Source: a bacterium
GTDB taxonomy: Bacteria; Sysuimicrobiota; Sysuimicrobiia; Sysuimicrobiales; Kaftiobacteriaceae
Direction of reading: 5' to 3'
NCBI GenBank assembly: GCA_044868695.1
Contig: JBIOWP010000130.1
Location: 1-27,154, forward strand
Length of the DNA stretch: 27,154 bases
Of the stretch, positions 1-6,910 are shown piece after piece (positions within the stretch are counted from its first letter, which is position 1; each line of letters begins with the position of its first letter). The translations under genes and the position numbers were made by a program. The notes under the pieces are model-generated. The model had not been told where the DNA came from. It saw only the letters and a program-made list of their open reading frames with translations, and made no database searches.

Positions 1-15
1 CTGAACTACGGACCC
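1..15 (-). tRNA. Possible 5' end of a tRNA gene running off the left edge
   Basis: Minus strand reads GGGTCCG-TA-GTTCAG, the typical acceptor 5' strand/U8A9/D-stem start. Only 15 nt are visible. Confidence 0.4.
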
Positions 16-27
16 ATTTCGCATTTT

Positions 28-50
28 TGGTGGAGGCGGTGGGAATCGAA
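28..50 (-). repeat. att site: displaced 3' fragment of tmRNA
   Basis: Identical to 6561-6583. Minus strand reads TTCGATTCCCACCGCCTCCACCA (T-loop to CCA), and identity stops in the T-loop as expected for a crossover core. Confidence 0.9.
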
Positions 51-69
51 TCGGTCGCCCACCGTTTGT

Positions 70-191
70 CGTCTAGTTGTGTCTAGTCACGTTGGCCGCT
101 GTCAATGCGGCGTTTCGTGACTTCCGCGAACCCTCGTTCCCCCGTCTAGTATCGTCCAAAAACGTCTACTTTGGTCCCAAAATGGTCCCAA
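70..191. repeat. att arm region: 10-bp-periodic repeats and TGGTCCCAA pair
   Basis: cgtctagt 70-77, tgtctagt 80-87, cgtctagt 143-150, cgtccaaa 153-160, cgtctact 163-170, ggtcccaa 173-180 and 184-191. Confidence 0.6.
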
Positions 192-530
192 CGAGTTCCC
201 CGCGCGGCGGGACGTGCGGGCATCCGGCTGGCCAGAGCAAATCGTCCCACCATTCGGCCGGTGTGATCGGGATGCTGTCGAACAAGTGACCATACGTCTT
301 CATCGAATAGCCGGCGTCGGTGTGCCGCGCCCATTCGCCGATCTGCTTCGGGTGCTTTCCGCTTGCGATCAGCAGCGTCACGAACTGATGCCGCAGGTCA
401 TGCCAGGTGATCGGGTTCCGGATGCCCGCGCGGGTCTGCGCCTTCTTCCATTCGCGCGTGATCCATGACCCCGCGCCGATGGGCGTCAGTCCGTCCGTCG
501 AGAAGGCGTACCCCTCGCGCCAGGAGGCGC
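166..530 (-). pseudogene. Tyrosine integrase, C-terminal catalytic fragment only
   Basis: WHDLRHQFVTLLI...WARHTD...MKTYGHL contains HxxR, H and Y. The N-terminal two-thirds, including the first catalytic Arg, are missing. The gene points toward the att site. The 5' boundary is approximate. Confidence 0.8.
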
Positions 531-559
531 AACCGGAACGGGCGTCTGAGGTTGGCTTC

Positions 560-853
560 ATGCTCCTGGCCGAGAACCTGCGGAGCGTCCTCTACCGCTA
601 CGGCGGCGACGAGACTATGCGGCCGGAGTGGGCGCGGGAGCCGTACACTTGGCGGGATCCCGGCTACCGCCTCACGGTCGCGGAGGCGCTGAAGGCGCTT
701 GACTGCCTTGAATACCAGTCCTGCGAGCATCCGGGCTGGCACGACTCGGAGGCGGCGCAGTTCGCCGAGGCGTTGCGGCGCGCGCTGGTTCACGCCTTGA
801 AGGGTTACGAGGCCGCGCCGTGGGAGTGGACGAAGGTTCCCGCGGGGGTTTGA
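560..853 (+). CDS. Phage/ICE-type hypothetical protein, probably N-terminally truncated
   Basis: MLLAENLRSVLYRY...KALDCLEYQSCEHPGW...PWEW resembles a mobile-element hypothetical family as I recall it. It has GC-rich codon usage and its stop lies just before the RBS of the next gene. The start is uncertain. Confidence 0.6.
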   Translation: MLLAENLRSVLYRYGGDETMRPEWAREPYTWRDPGYRLTVAEALKALDCLEYQSCEHPGWHDSEAAQFAEALRRALVHALKGYEAAPWEWTKVPAGV

Positions 854-864
854 GGGAGGCGGTC

Positions 865-1911
865 ATGGGCCTGGAGGCAATTCGAAGGCTATTGTTCGGG
901 GAGCCTTACGTCGACGTGCCGGTTGTGGTCGAGCCGGAGCCGCCCGGACCGGACGTGCGGGAAGATCCGCAGCCCCGCGACCCGACGATGCCGCGGAGCT
1001 TCGCGGAGTTCGTCGGGCAGGAGGAGGCCGTCAGGCTCCTCAAGGCGGAGGTCGCTGCGGCGAAGCGCGAGGGGCGCCTGCTGTCGCACCTTCTCCTCTA
1101 CGGCCCGCCGGGGGTCGGCAAGACGGCGCTGGCCTTCATCCTGGCCGAGGAGATGGGCTACGCGGTCTACGAATCGACTGGCGCGGAGTTCCCGACGCAG
1201 GCGGAGATGATCCAGACGCTCGGCCGGGTCGGGGAGCTGTGCGCGAATGCTGGCAGGCCGGCCGTGTTCCTTCTGGACGAGGTCGACGGCATGGCGCGGA
1301 CGGCCTCCTACCCACTCCACAGTCTCATGACCTCGGGTTACGTCCAGTGGCGGGGGGCGAAGTACGGCCCGGCAAACGTAACGGTCCTGGCGACGACCAA
1401 TCACATGGCGCGCGTCCACCGTGCGCTGAAGTCGCGCTTTCAGGAGGTCGTGCTCATCGACTACTACTCCCCGGTCGAGCTCGCGGAGATCGCGTTCTGG
1501 TCCGCCGTCCGGATGGGATTCGACCTCACGGCGGAGACGGCACTGTTCATTGGCGAAAACGCGGCCGGCGAGCCGCGGAAGGTCGTGAGACGGATCCTGC
1601 GGACGGTCGCGAACCTCCTGGACGGCCGCGCGGAGGCGGACCTCGGGCTGGTGCGGGAGGCGCTTCACCTGTCGGGGCTACGGCCGAAGGGCCTCATGCG
1701 GTCGCAGTTCGACTATCTCCGGTTCCTCGCGTCGTGCGAGGACGGGACGGCCGGCGTCAATTCGGTGGCGGCCTTCCTCGCGGAGGATCCAGAGGACGTC
1801 AGGGGAGAACACGAGCCTTTCCTCATCCGGTCGGGGCTCGCCGTCGTGACGCGGAGCGGAAGGAAAATCACGGAGGCCGGGCTACGATACCTCGCGGAGG
1901 TGCCGAGTTGA
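865..1911 (+). CDS. RuvB-like AAA+ ATPase (divergent, island-borne)
   Basis: PRSFAEFVGQ, HLLLYGPPGVGKT (Walker A), LLDEVD (Walker B), ATT, LKSRF, GEPR and C-terminal EPFLIRSGL..TRSGR winged helix. GGAGG RBS precedes ATG 865. Confidence 0.85.
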   Translation: MGLEAIRRLLFGEPYVDVPVVVEPEPPGPDVREDPQPRDPTMPRSFAEFVGQEEAVRLLKAEVAAAKREGRLLSHLLLYGPPGVGKTALAFILAEEMGYAVYESTGAEFPTQAEMIQTLGRVGELCANAGRPAVFLLDEVDGMARTASYPLHSLMTSGYVQWRGAKYGPANVTVLATTNHMARVHRALKSRFQEVVLIDYYSPVELAEIAFWSAVRMGFDLTAETALFIGENAAGEPRKVVRRILRTVANLLDGRAEADLGLVREALHLSGLRPKGLMRSQFDYLRFLASCEDGTAGVNSVAAFLAEDPEDVRGEHEPFLIRSGLAVVTRSGRKITEAGLRYLAEVPS

Positions 1912-2228
1912 CGAAGCCGAGCCGGTATGTGACCGTCGAGGAGGCCGCCGAGCTATTGCCTGCGGGGAAACCCGGCAAGGCCCACATGACACGCGCCCAA
2001 CTTTACAATGTCATCCGATCGGGCGAACTCCGATTCGTGAAGAGAAAGGTTCTGCGCCGTGCCGATGTCCTGCGATTAGCCGACCGCCGCGCCCGGGCGA
2101 AGGCGCGCGAGGAGGCCGCTAAGGCCGCCAAGGAAAAGAGGCAACGGCTGGAGCAGAGGATCGCCGCCGCCGTCATGGCGGAGGACGCCGCGGAAGGAGG
2201 CGGGTCCGATGCACTTGGGAAAGTTTGA
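1908..2228 (+). CDS. Excisionase-like HTH DNA-binding protein with basic helical tail
   Basis: TTG start overlaps the upstream TGA (TTGA), with GGAGGTG RBS. Translation: MTKPSRYVTVEEAAELL...TRAQLYNVIRSGEL (HTH_17/Xis-like). It is the 3' part of the 1239..2228 ORF. Confidence 0.7.
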   Translation: MTKPSRYVTVEEAAELLPAGKPGKAHMTRAQLYNVIRSGELRFVKRKVLRRADVLRLADRRARAKAREEAAKAAKEKRQRLEQRIAAAVMAEDAAEGGGSDALGKV

Positions 2229-3036
2229 GGAACACTTGCGGGCGACGTGCGGGAGCGAGCGGACGGTGCGGGCCTACGTCGCGGACAGCAGGGCGTTCGT
2301 GCGGTTCCTCGGCGGGCGCCCTCCTGACATCGACGCGGTCGAGGCCTGGGTGTCGGGCCTGAACCACGGAGCCAACCGCCCCCAGACGATTCAGCGGAAG
2401 CTGTCCGCGGTCCGCCGGTACCTCGGCTACGAAGCGCGCCACGGCGACGAGGCGGCGCAGAAGTCGCTGCTGATCCTGCGCGACTACCGGGGCACGCCGC
2501 CCGTCCGGCAAGTCGACGTCGAGCGGGTGCGGGCGATCACGCGCGAGGAGTACGCGGCGCTGCGCGGGAAGGCCGACGCCCGGATGAAGGCCCTGCTGGC
2601 CGCGGCGTGGTGGACGGGGGCGAGAGTGAGCGAGCTTCTCGGCGACCCGCTGACCGGCATCCCCGCAATGACGGCCGCGGATGGGCTACAGCTCGTGCGC
2701 GAGGGATACGCCGTCACGCGGGGGAAGGGCGGCAAGGTCCGCGTCCTAGTGCTGCCCTCCGCGGGGCGCGCAGACCTGCGGGCTTACGCCGAGACCCGGC
2801 AGTCGGGCGCGCTGTTCGAAATCACGCCACAGGGCCTGAACGCCTGGCTGCACCGCGCTGGCTTCCCCGGCGGGATCCATGCGTTCCGCCACGCTTACAG
2901 GTCGCGGCTCCGGCAGGCCGGGGTCGGCGAAGAGATGCAGGCCCGGCTGTTGGGGCACGGGCCGCGAACGGTAACGCAAGGCTACGGGCCGGCGGAGGCT
3001 GAGGAGATGGCGGCCGCCGTCGAGAGGCTTTCTTGA
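2209..3036 (+). CDS. XerC/D-type tyrosine recombinase
   Basis: SERTVRAY N-terminal domain; TGARVSEL, GKGGKVR, HAFRH, LLGH, TQGY. The catalytic set R-K-H-R-H-Y is intact. Confidence 0.9.
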   Translation: MHLGKFEEHLRATCGSERTVRAYVADSRAFVRFLGGRPPDIDAVEAWVSGLNHGANRPQTIQRKLSAVRRYLGYEARHGDEAAQKSLLILRDYRGTPPVRQVDVERVRAITREEYAALRGKADARMKALLAAAWWTGARVSELLGDPLTGIPAMTAADGLQLVREGYAVTRGKGGKVRVLVLPSAGRADLRAYAETRQSGALFEITPQGLNAWLHRAGFPGGIHAFRHAYRSRLRQAGVGEEMQARLLGHGPRTVTQGYGPAEAEEMAAAVERLS

Positions 3037-3153
3037 GGGGGAGGCGACGGGAAAAGGACGGGTTGAACCGCTACGGACACGAGGGTTGTGTGATTGAGCC
3101 CATCTTCAGCAGATACTTCGCTCCTCCAAGAACGGACTGGTGAGAAACATTTG

Positions 3154-3759
3154 TCACCGAGACACCGGACCGGCGACTTCTCCCCCCGTTACGAGGCCCG
3201 TTGTCGGATTCAGGCGTAGGACGACCACGGCTCCTGGTTGCAGCTTATCTTGGGAGACAAATTGCCCCCCCAGAATGAATCGCGCACTCTCTGTGAGCGC
3301 GAATTTCCGACCGTCGGCAAATGACACCTCGGATCCATTGATCGCGGCAAGCTTGCCCTGGGCTTCGCGGGCCCGCACTTCGACGATATTCACAAAAGTT
3401 CCCGGTGGCCAAGGGCTCCCTCCACCGACTTCCACTACGAGCATAACGAAGTCACCTTTGAAGACTCTGTCAAGGCTGATCGGCGTAGTCTGATTTGTTT
3501 CAACATTCACTTTCGTGACCGCCGTTCTCTCCGTGACCACGAACGTGCGTCTGGTGGACCCCAGCAGGTCAACCACAAGCTGCTGGGGCGTGCTGTTCGT
3601 GTCTACCTGCACAACAACCCCCGGAGAATTTCCCCCCTTTGGGGGTGAACTTCCAGCCCAACTCATCTGCGAAAACGCTCGGGCTGGAAGCCCTGCAGCC
3701 AGGATGGCGGCCAGAATCGATGTAATCCCGAATGTCATCCGCACTCTGCTAGTTCTCAT
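3154..3759 (-). CDS. Secreted hypothetical protein with two beta-rich (OB-like) repeats
   Basis: Signal peptide ending ..PARAFS. Two similar units (V.ERTAVT..SLDRVFKGDFVML and L.ESARF..SQDKLQPGAVVVL). Confidence 0.6.
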   Translation of the reverse strand: MRTSRVRMTFGITSILAAILAAGLPARAFSQMSWAGSSPPKGGNSPGVVVQVDTNSTPQQLVVDLLGSTRRTFVVTERTAVTKVNVETNQTTPISLDRVFKGDFVMLVVEVGGGSPWPPGTFVNIVEVRAREAQGKLAAINGSEVSFADGRKFALTESARFILGGQFVSQDKLQPGAVVVLRLNPTTGLVTGGEVAGPVSR

Positions 3760-3794
3760 GTATTTTCACCCACCGATTTGTCTGCCCCAGGAAA

Positions 3795-4733
3795 TCAAGG
3801 GGTAGTCACCACCCATGAGGCATCCGGACCTCCGGACTCATGGAGCGTATAGGTTGGACTCTCAGTAAAGCACCATCCGCGGGTAAAATAATCAGAATTG
3901 GATGTAGTCAAGTTGACCCAGCGATTGTTCAGGAACACCTTCAGGAAGAGCACCGAAATCCCCACCGGACGACCAGGATCGCTGTTCAGTGATGGGCAGC
4001 TTGCGTAGGTGTACTTGAAGTAGTTCTCATGCTGCGACCACCCCCCCGGCACCAGGGGCTTGTTTGTTGTCGTCAACGAGTACATGACCTCCCAAGACCC
4101 TATGTCTTTTCTAAAAAGCAAGCTTGTGTAGGTGGTCTTGCTCTCCTGGATGACCTCCGTGAAGAAGAGGTGGGGCGTTTGGACCTCATACATGTACCGC
4201 TGGAAAAACGTGTCATCAATCGTGATCCTAGCTACAACACCGTGGGCTACGCAATGGTCCCATGTCCACACTTCCCGGAGCGTACTGGCTTGGCCGGCGG
4301 CGCGGAAGTAGGCTGTCACCGTTTCCAAACAGTTACCGGAATTCATCGCAGTGGGCGCATACAGATAGGCGACACCGGATGGAACTGGGGGTAATTGAAG
4401 CGTCAAGTGAGCTTGATGACCCCCATAGTAGCCCTTAGCGTTCTTTGCTGGTTGGGTAGGACCAAAATCTATCCCTGCCTGACCATCCCCCGGCGTGGGT
4501 GGTGAAGACACATACCGGGGAGGAGGAGTGGGAAATGGCTTAAGAACGATGTCTGCCGTTGCCCACGGGAGGAGATGAATCTCCTCTGGAAGCGCGGGCA
4601 TGGGTGCTGAAGAAGGGACGGCAAACTGAGCTACCGCCCTGGGGACGAACGACGCCAAAACAGCAACGAGGCCAGTTAGAAGCAGAACGATTACGAGCGA
4701 GTAACGAAATTGTGTCGCCGGGGTCATTGGCAA
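3795..4733 (-). CDS. Secreted hypothetical protein (Pro-rich linker plus beta-rich domain)
   Basis: 312-aa ORF with an N-terminal hydrophobic signal, a Pro-rich segment and an aromatic-rich domain with 4 Cys. Confidence 0.7.
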   Translation of the reverse strand: MPMTPATQFRYSLVIVLLLTGLVAVLASFVPRAVAQFAVPSSAPMPALPEEIHLLPWATADIVLKPFPTPPPRYVSSPPTPGDGQAGIDFGPTQPAKNAKGYYGGHQAHLTLQLPPVPSGVAYLYAPTAMNSGNCLETVTAYFRAAGQASTLREVWTWDHCVAHGVVARITIDDTFFQRYMYEVQTPHLFFTEVIQESKTTYTSLLFRKDIGSWEVMYSLTTTNKPLVPGGWSQHENYFKYTYASCPSLNSDPGRPVGISVLFLKVFLNNRWVNLTTSNSDYFTRGWCFTESPTYTLHESGGPDASWVVTTP

Positions 4734-4888
4734 TTACCATCCCGACGCTTTGACTGGCACTCATTGCATGACTCCCCGCTAGACGGTCGCGAGTATGATG
4801 TATCGTAGTCCGAAGTAGGCCAGTTAGAGCAGTTAGAACAATAATGCCAGGTATCGCTCCCGCGCCGCCTCCGGTGTGTGCTTGCCAT
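4724..4888 (-). CDS. Small Cys/His-rich protein (54 aa, putative Zn-binding)
   Basis: GGAGG RBS before ATG 4888. MASTHRRRRGSDTWHYCSNCSNWP...CNEC...NCQ. Confidence 0.7.
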   Translation of the reverse strand: MASTHRRRRGSDTWHYCSNCSNWPTSDYDTSYSRPSSGESCNECQSKRRDGNCQ

Positions 4889-5099
4889 TGAATAACCCTC
4901 CCCTTTTTGTGGAATCATTCAATGGTGAGTAAGCCTTTACCTGCCGCCGTGTATCTGACAGCGGGTGGCGACACCGGTGGAGTACGAACATACGTTGGTG
5001 GCTATCGGTTGTCGTCCTGGGGCAAAAACCTGAGTGATCCGGCAGGAGTCTCGTGCGACACTGAATATTGCTTTTACAGTGGGTTGTGGGTAGGGTGGA

Positions 5100-5172
5100 T
5101 GAGCGGGGATGGACTCGAACCCTCAGCCCCCTAGGTACGATGTAGGTGCGCTACCTGTTCTGCTACCCGCTC
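5100..5172 (-). tRNA. Degenerate tRNA-like gene, anticodon CGT (Thr-like)
   Basis: GAGCGGG/CCCGCTC acceptor stem, TA at 8-9, TTCGAGT T-loop, CCTA/TAGG anticodon stem with loop ATCGTAC. Mismatches in the D, anticodon and T stems, and no encoded CCA. Confidence 0.65.
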
Positions 5173-5187
5173 GCAATCCAGATCGTA

Positions 5188-5263
5188 TGGCGCGCCCGGT
5201 GGGATTCAAACCCACGACCAGCCGATTAGTAGTCGGCCCCTCTCTTCCCTGAGGTACGGGCGC
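5188..5263 (-). tRNA. tRNA, anticodon ACT, Arg-type class I body
   Basis: GCGCCCG TA CCTC AGGGAAGA GAGG G GCCGA CTACTAA TCGGC TGGTC GTGGG TTTGAAT CCCAC CGGGCGC G CCA. 76 nt, all four stems fully paired. Confidence 0.85.
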
Positions 5264-5266
5264 ACC

Positions 5267-5320
5267 AAAACGAGGCGGGCCAGCTGTTCGCGCAAGTCGC
5301 GATCAGCCGTGCCCGCCTCG
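5267..5320 (-). terminator. Long hairpin plus short T-run directly upstream of the tRNA(ACT)
   Basis: cgaggcgggc/gcccgcctcg outer stem with inner stems cggctg/cagctg and tcgcg/cgcga, followed by TTTT on the minus strand. Confidence 0.45.
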
Positions 5321-5377
5321 CTGTCAAGACGGAGGGGCTTTCACCGTCCCCACACCACAAGCCCTGGGGCACCCTCG

Positions 5378-5407
5378 ATTCTAGTTGTCCACAGGTAGAA
5401 TTGTAAA
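5378..5407 (-). promoter_or_regulatory. sigma70-like promoter for the RNA cluster
   Basis: TTTACA-18 bp-TAGAAT on the minus strand. The spacer contains TGTGGACAA (DnaA-box-like). Confidence 0.5.
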
Positions 5408-5544
5408 GACGTACTAGTGTTCGATATATTGGGCGACACCAGCCGAAGGATTAGTGTGGCAAGAGGTGGCTAGGATCCTCTCATTTCCCATCCTCCTCCT
5501 CCTACTTGGGTTTGCCTCGCTCTCGGCAAGTACCTTTCGTGTGT

Positions 5545-5970
5545 TTATCTCAGCATCTGAGCGGAGACCTTGCGGCAGACGGTCTCAGATCCGTTGTTTG
5601 GATTCACGCAGATGGTATCGTACCGCCCTGAATGGCCCGGCTCCCGTTCGTTGCAGGTGGGCTTGAAGTAGTCGTAGAGCCACCACTCCAAGTCGTCGCG
5701 ATCAGATGCCGACGGCCACACGGCATACTGGAACTGGCAATAGAAATCCCTGAGTTTTCGGGCGTTGCAGGGATTCAACTCATTTTCCGGGAGATGGTCG
5801 CGCAGACGGGCGCGCAGATCAAGAGCCTTTCCGACGTAGTGGACGAAATTCTTGTCGCCGGATAGATGCATCAACCTGTAGACGCCGCCCTCCGGTGGGA
5901 CCGTGGAGAGGGAATTCTCGCTCATCGGTTGCATGCTGCTCCATGTCACGGCGAAGTTTCGCGTTCCCAT
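5545..5970 (-). CDS. Stand-alone GIY-YIG nuclease family protein
   Basis: GGVYRL...HYVGKALDLRARLRDH...DDLE...FKPTCN matches GIY-YIG motifs with catalytic R, E and N. GGAG RBS before ATG 5970. Confidence 0.8.
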   Translation of the reverse strand: MGTRNFAVTWSSMQPMSENSLSTVPPEGGVYRLMHLSGDKNFVHYVGKALDLRARLRDHLPENELNPCNARKLRDFYCQFQYAVWPSASDRDDLEWWLYDYFKPTCNEREPGHSGRYDTICVNPNNGSETVCRKVSAQMLR

Positions 5971-6051
5971 GCTCGTCTCCAGTTCTGGTTCGGGGGCACT
6001 TACGCTCAACCGGCCAGCGACGTGCGCCCGGAATGTGTAGCTGTTTGTTGC

Positions 6052-6204
6052 CCCAGAAATTCTGGGTCGACGCCCCCAGGGGGAGGAGTTCGGCGGGAAT
6101 ACGTCGTAGCCGGTAATGCGACCGAGGGCACCGGACCGAATTCCTCGCCCCTGGGTCAGATCGGAAGCCAACAAGCCAAGCCCAAACTTGGCTTGTTGGT
6201 TTTC
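6052..6204 (+). ncRNA. Candidate structured RNA with terminal terminator-like hairpin
   Basis: Hairpin 6052-6066; long stem 6075-6093/6136-6155; inner gtcgta/tgcgac; 13-bp perfect hairpin ccaacaagccaag/cttggcttgttgg followed by TTTT. Confidence 0.4.
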
Positions 6205-6387
6205 ATACTCTTCTCATCGCTCAGCCCCCTCTCCGTCAGCTACCCTTATGTCTGTTCGGCTGTACCGAACACCACAATATCTGGGGCCACGCAGAGTCTA
6301 ATCCCCCATGTATTGGGTGTCAATGGTTCTCCCAGTAGCGACCGTCTGTTCGATTCGTTCATTGCTGGATGGGTTTCTGGGTGCCGT

Positions 6388-6451
6388 TGTGGATCACCTT
6401 GTGGGCAAAGTGCGAGTTTCCGTGGATAACACTGGAATTTGGCGTGGATAG
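6388..6451. promoter_or_regulatory. Cluster of DnaA-box-like 9-mers
   Basis: tgtggatca 6388, tgtgggcaa 6400, cgtggataa 6421, cgtggatag 6443. Each has 1-2 mismatches to TGTGGATAA, all in the same orientation. Confidence 0.35.
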
Positions 6452-6495
6452 GCCGGGGAAAGCAAAAGAAACCAGGTCAAGATCTTCCAATTCCC

Positions 6496-6514
6496 TGTCC
6501 CAATTCCGTCCCAA
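6496..6514. repeat. Integrase arm-type repeat pair
   Basis: tgtcccaa ttc cgtcccaa has the same GTCCCAA core, 11-bp period and orientation as 173-191. Confidence 0.65.
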
Positions 6515-6550
6515 AAAGCAAAGACGCGGGCGAAACCCCGCGTCCTGCTT
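6513..6550 (-). terminator. Rho-independent terminator downstream of ssrA
   Basis: aagcaggacgcggg gtttcg cccgcgtctttgcttttt on the minus strand. Confidence 0.8.
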
Positions 6551-6560
6551 AGAGATTCTG

Positions 6561-6910
6561 TGGTGGAGGCGGTGGGAATCGAACCCACGTCCTGGGATTG
6601 CGAGGGCGGGACGTCTACGCGTGTATCTCAGGGATGGGATCTCGCGGTCGGAAGCTCCCCCGAGCCGGATCCTCCGCACGCCAGCCCGTTAGGATTCCCG
6701 CCCGGCGTTCGGACAGCGCGCCGTACGGTAGCCGGCTGTTGGCGCCCATCCCGGACCACCGGCCCTTCCGGGTAGACGTACGCTGCTACTTAGGCAGCGT
6801 AGGCGTACTGTGTATTGGCGGTTATTCGCCGTCCAGGTATTTAACGAGGGCCCGGACCACCTCGACGCGCAGCCTCGCTTCTGCCATCCTAGTCGAGACC
6901 GTTCGCCCCC
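6561..6910 (-). ncRNA. ssrA: tmRNA
   Basis: 5' GGGGGCGAACGGTCTCGAC, 3' GGGTTCGATTCCCACCGCCTCCACCA with a G3-U pair. Tag ORF at 6819-6790 encodes ANTQYAYAA*. 350 nt long, with smpB nearby. Confidence 0.97.

Follow-up and report, generated by a model that had tools for sequence, protein, structure and literature searches.

An island-borne clade of RuvB paralogues that has probably shed RuvA control and recurs beside one family of tyrosine recombinases

Can a RuvB-type motor work outside the control of RuvA? RuvB is usually regarded as a motor that needs RuvA, both as its loader and as its nucleotide-exchange factor. Here we analyse a RuvB-like AAA+ ATPase encoded on contig JBIOWP010000130.1 (assembly GCA_044868695.1) of a soil bacterium of the phylum Sysuimicrobiota, family Kaftiobacteriaceae; positions 1 to 27,154 of this contig are the stretch of DNA that we call the window. 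The ATPase gene is the first of three overlapping genes, the other two encoding a small helix-turn-helix (HTH) protein and an Xer-type tyrosine recombinase, and the locus is a decayed remnant of a mobile island integrated at the transfer-messenger RNA (tmRNA) gene. The ATPase belongs to a real, undescribed clade of RuvB in which the features of RuvA control are coherently lost, and which stands recurrently, not invariably, beside one recombinase family. We propose, with a probability of roughly 0.4, that this paralogue is a RuvA-free ring motor that acts on the element's own DNA and serves the adjacent recombinase.

A RuvB-like ATPase outside ordinary RuvB

The ATPase gene runs from an ATG at 865 to a TGA at 1911 (348 amino acids). 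The HTH gene starts with a TTG at 1908, sharing the letters TTGA with the end of the ATPase gene, has a GGAGG at 1896-1900 and ends at 2228; the recombinase gene extends from an ATG at 2209 to 3036 and shares 20 nucleotides (nt) with the HTH gene. Gene calls thus reproduce the three overlapping genes of the first-pass annotation. The translational coupling that it proposed fits the TTGA junction but not the second one, which is a 20-nt overlap rather than a 4-nt stop/start. An assembly artefact is ruled out, since a contig from a second study (X6 record 28) spans both overlaps (1530-2741) with zero differences, and two more (X5 record 18 and X6 record 26) cover a junction at 524 that is described below.

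In the ATPase, Pfam recognises RuvB_N, AAA and RuvB_C, and all of the RuvB motifs previously claimed for it are found: Walker A, Walker B, the arginine finger, sensor 2 and the winged helix. Walker B, however, reads DExD and not the DExH of RuvB, and the RuvB signature residues are gone. The structural model (mean predicted local distance difference test score, pLDDT, 88.8) is predicted to contain the AAA+ core, the lid and the C-terminal winged helix, and in Foldseek it is closest to RuvB structures (E 4e-27), with MgsA or RFC at 1e-12. The extra N-terminus noticed earlier is real, reaching about 20 residues beyond that of the host RuvB, and pLDDT drops below 50 at residues 14-23. Against the NCBIfam RuvB models the ATPase scores 148 and 142 bits and does not reach the cut-offs of 282 and 299, while the host RuvB, to which it is about 28% identical, scores 429 bits in the same kind of comparison. 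A match to IstB_IS21 (22.3 bits) is likewise below its cut-off. PADLOC gave only short P-loop matches for the ATPase and none for the other eight of nine proteins, and no specific defence-system model was matched.

Is this simply a displaced housekeeping ruvB? That explanation is ruled out, because the host has its own ruvC-ruvA-ruvB elsewhere in the genome, with ruvC-ruvA at the end of contig C157 and ruvA-ruvB at the start of contig C150. The single RuvA_N match of the genome lies on C157 and none lies on the window contig, in keeping with the earlier remark that the ATPase has no ruvA nearby.

Phylogeny separates the ATPase from housekeeping RuvB as well. A quick maximum-likelihood analysis covered 87 rows (31 of the family, every second ordinary RuvB plus four, eight other paralogues and four outgroup rows, with two partial family rows left out). 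In the resulting tree the family forms one clade on a stem of 2.5 changes per column (support 99 in the Shimodaira-Hasegawa-like approximate likelihood-ratio test, SH-aLRT), and the host copy lies among ordinary RuvB; the root of the tree depends on long outgroup branches. Six other element-type RuvB paralogues (P0025, P0026, P0028, P0029, P0031 and P0129) have 48-49 residues between Walker B and sensor 1 (five of the six could be parsed) and are placed with ordinary RuvB. A joint clade of these six with the ATPase family is not rejected (approximately unbiased test, AU, p 0.458), and for that reason we dropped an origin independent of the other RuvB paralogues as a shown fact.

The first search for relatives found 22 ATPases at 46-75% identity, after which full-length matches fell to at most 31%; a second search added 12, and a search of representatives gave further, more distant ones. 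Each relative search scored 8000 candidates, and the first ATPase search missed a 57% relative. The databases label family members as plain RuvB or AAA ATPase. Scans of metagenome and genome contigs with the family alignment returned only ordinary RuvB among the best 80 loci of each and were used solely as a source of control loci, and four scans of viral contigs returned neither the family ATPase nor the family recombinase. Among phage and plasmid collections, the best 25 of 34 and the best 25 of 80 matches were all only 25-31% identical. Nor was the family ATPase found in samples of 401, 251, 301 and 301 genomes, with 5-8 candidates scored per genome; the first two samples were drawn from the same group and the last from a class within that group.

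A shortened docking hairpin and loss of the gate residues

As outlined in PMC9477746, domain III of RuvA binds a hairpin of RuvB and serves as nucleotide-exchange factor, residues Glu128 and Asp129 sense Arg21 and Arg218, and the distance between Arg21 and Glu128 is a measure of gate opening; the role of the hairpin in RuvB is also confirmed in the account given in PMC4677358. We compared 33 family rows with 81 ordinary RuvB rows column by column. The ordinary set comprises the best match per locus plus one viral locus, selected without checking each for an adjacent ruvA, and published residue numbers were mapped through motif position and alignment to T. thermophilus RuvB.

Walker B and sensor 1 are joined by a segment of 51 residues in the host RuvB and in 75 of 80 ordinary rows (five unparsed). 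In the family it measures 42-44 residues in 32 of 33 rows (one unparsed), that is, 8-9 fewer, under a pattern that counts one extra residue in some rows. The hairpin segment, which the first-pass annotation had found shorter than and unlike the canonical one in this protein, is therefore altered family-wide; a short two-stranded hairpin (strands 160-162 and 165-167) is still predicted in the model. The second half of the hairpin is replaced across the family, together with the equivalents of R7, E115 and D116, which are listed among the salt bridges between T. thermophilus RuvB subunits in PMC10272136.

The gate is lost as well, which goes beyond the earlier observation on the hairpin. At the position of Arg21 the family has Tyr in 19 rows, a gap in four and Met in two (n=33), while ordinary RuvB has Arg in 78 (n=81). 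Similarly, the position of Glu128 is Thr in 27 of 33 family rows and Glu in 80 of 81 ordinary ones, and that of Asp129 is His in 25 of 33 and Asp in 78 of 81, respectively. The active site appears to be rebuilt. Walker B is DExD in 32 of 33 family rows and DExH in 80 of 81 ordinary rows; sensor 1 is Asn in every family row (33/33) and Thr in 80 of 81 ordinary rows; and the residue preceding the sensor-2 PR is Glu in 32 of 33 (giving GEPR), where all 81 ordinary rows have Thr. The seven core ATPase residues, K86, T/S87, D138, E139, N179, R191 and R238, are present in 33/33 family rows. Every family row also has R145, the counterpart in the alignment of T. thermophilus R104, a DNA contact reported in PMC10272136, and two of the wing arginines persist in most rows, the last in 31 of 33 rows and the middle one, shifted by one column, in 22 of 33. 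The loss of the docking hairpin together with the gate residues argues for release from RuvA control, and from these alignments we consider it likely that the family has shed that control through a coherent loss of docking and gate features.

Recurrent linkage to one recombinase family

Within the phylum the ATPase and recombinase families both occur in the same two of 94 genomes. The second genome, G020, comes from another family of the same order and carries an operon, with 4-nt overlaps, of ArdcN, LPD29, small open reading frames (ORFs), an HTH gene, the recombinase (52% identical) and the ATPase (58%); it also has an ordinary ruvB fragment at a contig end. As a control we took 104 ordinary ruvB loci flanked on each side by 1.5 kilobases (kb) or more, and in none of them did a recombinase lie within 1 kb. 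Co-location was approximated by a proxy, equality of the longest-contig figure between the records of the ATPase (48) and those of the recombinase (16). The figure was identical in four cases (9804, 15247, 9019 and 8887) against about 0.08 expected, two of them being this locus and G020; the proxy is rough, since the searches were incomplete, the figure belongs to an exact sequence and some gaps may be misses. The identities of the paired proteins run in parallel across the four matched pairs (76/72, 57/52, 49/49, 58/50, 48/50 and 48/44). The linkage is recurrent, and the data do not support an obligate one. Of the neighbourhood whose recurrence the first-pass annotation proposed to check, the ATPase-recombinase pair is found again in G020 and, by proxy, twice more. 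A fixed three-gene module is rejected: the G020 HTH protein does not align with that of the window, the HTH protein has no relative in the other 93 genomes and the gene order differs.

Two further possible pairs, P0118/P0064 and P0138/P0060, have longest-contig figures 8 and 11 bases apart between assembly sources and were not counted; P0118 and P0064 resemble the matched pair P0119/P0065 at identities of 89% and 78%. Directly before the G020 ArdcN gene, an 18-nt inverted repeat lies over a promoter-like TTGACT-16-TAGGAT identified by eye (L216:1051-1106), and the G020 ATPase gene is followed by a TIR_2-like gene (E 5e-5) and an apparent insertion-sequence end (L216:4849-5540).

The recombinase bears out its description as an intact Xer-type enzyme. 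Pfam finds Phage_int_SAM_1 and Phage_integrase and no arm-binding domain, and the complete R-K-H-R-H-Y set (R139, K173, H224, R227, H250 and Y259) is invariant in 16/16 rows beside a SAM-like core-binding domain. It reaches neither the XerC nor the XerD cut-off (61.6 against 335 and 58.3 against 330 bits). Besides its own cluster there are 14 relatives at 46-82% identity, followed by a drop to about 30%, and the nearest solved structures are the archaeal XerC-like 4A8E (E 6e-16) and XerD 1A0P (E 4e-13). The host has two XerC/D-like genes of its own, on contigs C62 and C141. Could this recombinase be the integrase of the island? That role is ruled out, because the integrase is a separate, truncated gene, and a second job such as resolution is therefore reasonable. 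The HTH protein scores 25.4 bits against HTH_17, just below the cut-off of 27, and an atlas search with its gene returned generic HTH clusters only.

Proposed mechanism and alternative explanations

We propose that the ATPase would assemble into a ring-shaped DNA motor outside RuvA control. The ring would bind duplex DNA through its winged helix and hydrolyse ATP at the rebuilt active site, with its DExD Walker B, Asn sensor 1 and Glu before sensor 2. In the weakest step of this scheme, the recombinase, on its site or on its own Holliday junction, would replace RuvA as the anchor. The motor might then push the synapse or junction to products, as FtsK does for XerCD, so that element dimers are resolved or DNA is circularised or rearranged after transfer, and the HTH protein would be an interchangeable regulator. 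The first-pass annotation had imagined a dedicated RuvA-free recombination module. The analysis supports it in part, by the grouping outside ordinary RuvB, the separate host ruvCAB, the hairpin change, which proved to be family-wide, and the recurring pair; a fixed trio and an obligate pair are not supported. A bolder version seems rather unlikely to us: that there is a class of element recombination machines in which a RuvB ring was freed of RuvA in one concerted rebuild of hairpin, nucleotide gate and active site, is anchored by a recombinase and triggered on that enzyme's own Holliday junction, makes recombination motor-driven and directional, and has perhaps arisen repeatedly across phyla.

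Several points weigh against a motor that serves the recombinase. Tyrosine recombinases normally complete their reaction without a junction motor. No convincing recombinase target site was found, and the window and the G020 locus share no non-coding sequence. These two are the only loci read as DNA, and their gene order differs. Among clusters on contigs of at least 4 kb, five of nine recombinase and 15 of 19 ATPase clusters are without an equal-figure partner (4/9 and 4/19 match). The recombinase relative nearest in sequence (82% identity, contig of 413 kb) lacks an ATPase partner by the proxy, and an obligate pair is not supported on this ground; a recombinase on a 245-kb contig and ATPases on 115-kb and 97-kb contigs are likewise unpartnered by proxy. 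At the level of residues, the first wing arginine is lost (Val in 24 of 33 family rows, Arg in 73 of 81 ordinary rows), as is the arginine after Walker B, equivalent to the listed DNA contact R101. A change of Asp129 in ordinary RuvB markedly compromises branch migration, as outlined in PMC9477746, so that the family, which has lost this residue, may have weak motor activity or may act as an ATP-dependent scaffold. Finally, the part of PMC4792948 that deals with attI1 x attI1 recombination describes RuvABC as without effect on it.

The most serious alternative, possible though in our view short of an even chance, is that the motor is independent of RuvA but works alone, the ATPase and the recombinase being separate accessory genes from a single family of mobile elements, kept together only by a shared early operon. 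In that case the ATPase would act by itself as a translocase or helicase and assist newly arrived element DNA in becoming established or in recombining. The predominance of clusters of both families without a proxy partner, the shuffled gene order and the exchanged HTH gene are all in agreement with this explanation, as are the establishment-type neighbours, namely ArdcN and LPD29 in G020 and, for the gene upstream of the ATPase, a plasmid relative near a MobF relaxase; ArdC-N and LPD domains are tied to early invasion by conjugative elements and phages in the account of PMC5512222. It is countered by the finding that the same rare recombinase family is adjacent or one gene off in both loci, in two orders, when the other neighbours all differ, and by the parallel identities of the paired ATPases and recombinases.

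Less probable is an ATPase that, instead of pumping DNA processively, would serve the recombinase as an ATP-dependent scaffold or would capture targets for it, by analogy with IstB, TnsC and MuB. The adjacent recombinase would suit such a role, as would the absence of the trans-acting Glu128/Asp129 pair and of two arginines that contact DNA; retention of the full RuvB architecture including the head, with the catalytic Glu, the arginine finger and sensor 2 invariant, would not. Could the HTH protein instead act as an adaptor and bring the motor to a particular address on the DNA? An HTH_17-like gene is present in both loci read, and it overlaps the ATPase gene here. By sequence methods, however, the HTH protein has no RuvA_C match at E 0.1 and aligns neither with the host RuvA nor with the G020 HTH protein; in G020 the HTH gene is not beside the ATPase gene, and HTH genes are common next to integrases (another HTH_17-like one stands beside the integrase at locus L239). 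We therefore regard an adaptor as quite improbable. RuvA independence is common to our proposal and to these three alternatives, and it is better supported than service to the recombinase. The least probable explanation is that the ATPase acts on the host system, using host RuvA or poisoning RuvAB by entering its rings: both hosts read keep an ordinary ruvB and a short hairpin is left in the model, but the second half of the hairpin and the salt-bridge residues are replaced family-wide.

The tmRNA island

The island carries a 23-nt direct repeat, with paired 7-nt repeats near both copies (Table 1), so that 51-6560 can be read as one island or as a tandem of islands. Of the other 93 genomes of the phylum, 20 have relatives of the integrase, and three of six loci read lie beside tmRNA. 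Similarity to the integrase ends at 524; from there the opposite strand resembles a plasmid hypothetical protein, from about its codon 36 onwards. An internal deletion appears to have joined two broken genes, with loss of the middle of a larger element and possibly of the operon promoter. The plasmid relative of the second broken gene lies about 4 kb upstream of a MobF relaxase, and an atlas search with that gene gave no usable match. We found no sigma-70 consensus promoter in 1-3400; this copy of the ATPase may be silent, the deletion at about 524 having taken away whatever lay upstream. No excision joint was found among the contigs searched, which drop rare variants.

Table 1. Features of the island and of its tmRNA target, in window coordinates
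Feature	Positions	Strand	Basis
Distal attachment site, identical to the last 23 nt of the tmRNA gene	28..50	-	matches 6561-6583
3' fragment of the island integrase	166..524	-	Pfam; relatives beside tmRNA/tRNA genes; cut at ~524, presumed internal deletion
Paired 7-nt repeat, likely integrase arm site (putative function)	174..191	-	matching pair at 6497-6514
3' part of a plasmid/phage hypothetical gene, ~36 N-terminal codons missing	524..853	+	similarity
RuvB-like AAA+ ATPase, 348 amino acids, distinct clade; AAA+ core, lid, winged-helix head	865..1911	+	Pfam, NCBIfam, tree, model, Foldseek
Shortened presensor-1 hairpin segment, residues 155-176; MTS in place of the RuvB signature MED	1327..1392	+	alignment
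Xis-like HTH_17 protein, 106 amino acids, charged Ala-rich tail; no RuvA similarity	1908..2228	+	Pfam, alignments
Short Xer-type tyrosine recombinase, 275 amino acids, six catalytic residues present, own family	2209..3036	+	Pfam, alignment
Island cargo of low GC content (56.0%; 560-3050 has 69.5%)	3050..6560		GC content
tmRNA gene, last 23 nt = proximal attachment site	6561..6910	-	6561-6583 matches 28-50

The guanine-plus-cytosine (GC) content steps down at 3050, just past the recombinase gene. A site at 3036-3058 matches the attachment core at 16/23 positions, a match equalled by 19 of 200 shuffles and not significant alone; two islands in tandem could once have been joined here. The low-GC part contains two tRNA-like genes on the minus strand (5100-5172 and 5188-5263), which ARAGORN reads as Thr(CGT) and Ser(ACT) and Rfam scores at 39.3 and 60.7 bits, and which are maybe pseudogenes; an ACT anticodon is unusual in bacteria. 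Also on the minus strand are an ORF at 5545-6174 with a weak GIY-YIG nuclease match (E 0.001, below the cut-off) and no match in PADLOC, and two ORFs at 3154-3759 and 3795-4733 with hydrophobic N-termini and no family in Pfam, NCBIfam, PHROG or PADLOC. In L237, L239 and L240 the related integrase is oriented towards the tmRNA 3' end, but in L241, as in the window, it stands at the distal attachment site, giving two layouts within one integrase family. In another genome, G001, L237:5050-19277 is a 14-kb tmRNA island with a related integrase and with what we take to be a type I-E CRISPR-Cas set and arrays.

Relation to known systems and significance

The closest known relative is the RuvB of RuvAB(C) (T. 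thermophilus 8EFV/1IXS and S. thermophilus 7PBL), which has the same three-domain fold (TM-scores 0.67-0.77 by query, full-length chains) and shares with the ATPase Walker A, the catalytic Glu, the arginine finger, sensor 2 and the winged-helix head. The ATPase differs in being only 24-31% identical, island-borne and sporadic, with no ruvA or ruvC adjacent, and it falls short of canonical RuvB in its curated score, full hairpin, Arg21/Glu128/Asp129 signature and tree grouping. The six other element-type paralogues are likewise divergent RuvB with an altered hairpin, and differ in segment length and place in the tree. In IstB, TnsC and MuB, too, the gene of an AAA+ ATPase stands next to that of a recombination enzyme on a mobile element; these proteins serve DDE transposases and are without the RuvB head domain, whereas the ATPase of the window has this head and a tyrosine recombinase as neighbour. 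FtsK, as presented in PMC5357621, is a hexameric DNA motor that acts with the Xer-type tyrosine recombinases XerCD. The likeness is that of a DNA motor, here a predicted one, with an Xer-type recombinase; the motor families are unrelated, there is a single recombinase about 30% identical to XerC/D, and no dif-like site was found. RuvA-independent helicase activity is described for Mycoplasma RuvB in PMC3364216, an instance of RuvB activity without RuvA. The Mycoplasma proteins differ in being housekeeping copies in genomes with RuvA, not element-borne, and the available part of that report gives no recombinase partner. In the open literature we found no account of a RuvB paralogue that is carried by a mobile element and accompanied by a recombinase, though subscription papers or supplements may hold one; in the accessible part of a report on jumbo-phage RuvC, RuvB-like ATPases are mentioned only as absent beside it (PMC7824862).

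RuvB-like domains have been put to other, unexplored uses as well. Among the 44 representatives scanned, of 150 listed, none carried a RuvB-like domain fused to a recombinase (E 1e-6). Fusions with a phage XkdF-type protease were seen in seven of the 44 (P0153, P0156, P0158, P0211, P0226, P0235 and P0264), with an HNH nuclease in two (P0231 and P0271), with a trypsin-like domain in one (P0185) and with a second AAA domain in three (P0172, P0200 and P0244).

If the recombinase is the new partner of this motor, tyrosine recombination under the control of a motor, known from XerCD/FtsK, would have a second and independent example, and directional recombination tools might be developed from it. 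If it is not, the family is still an unannotated clade of RuvB. The family is a natural experiment in which the docking hairpin and the gate residues have been removed and the catalytic core kept, which makes the mechanism of RuvA gating directly testable.

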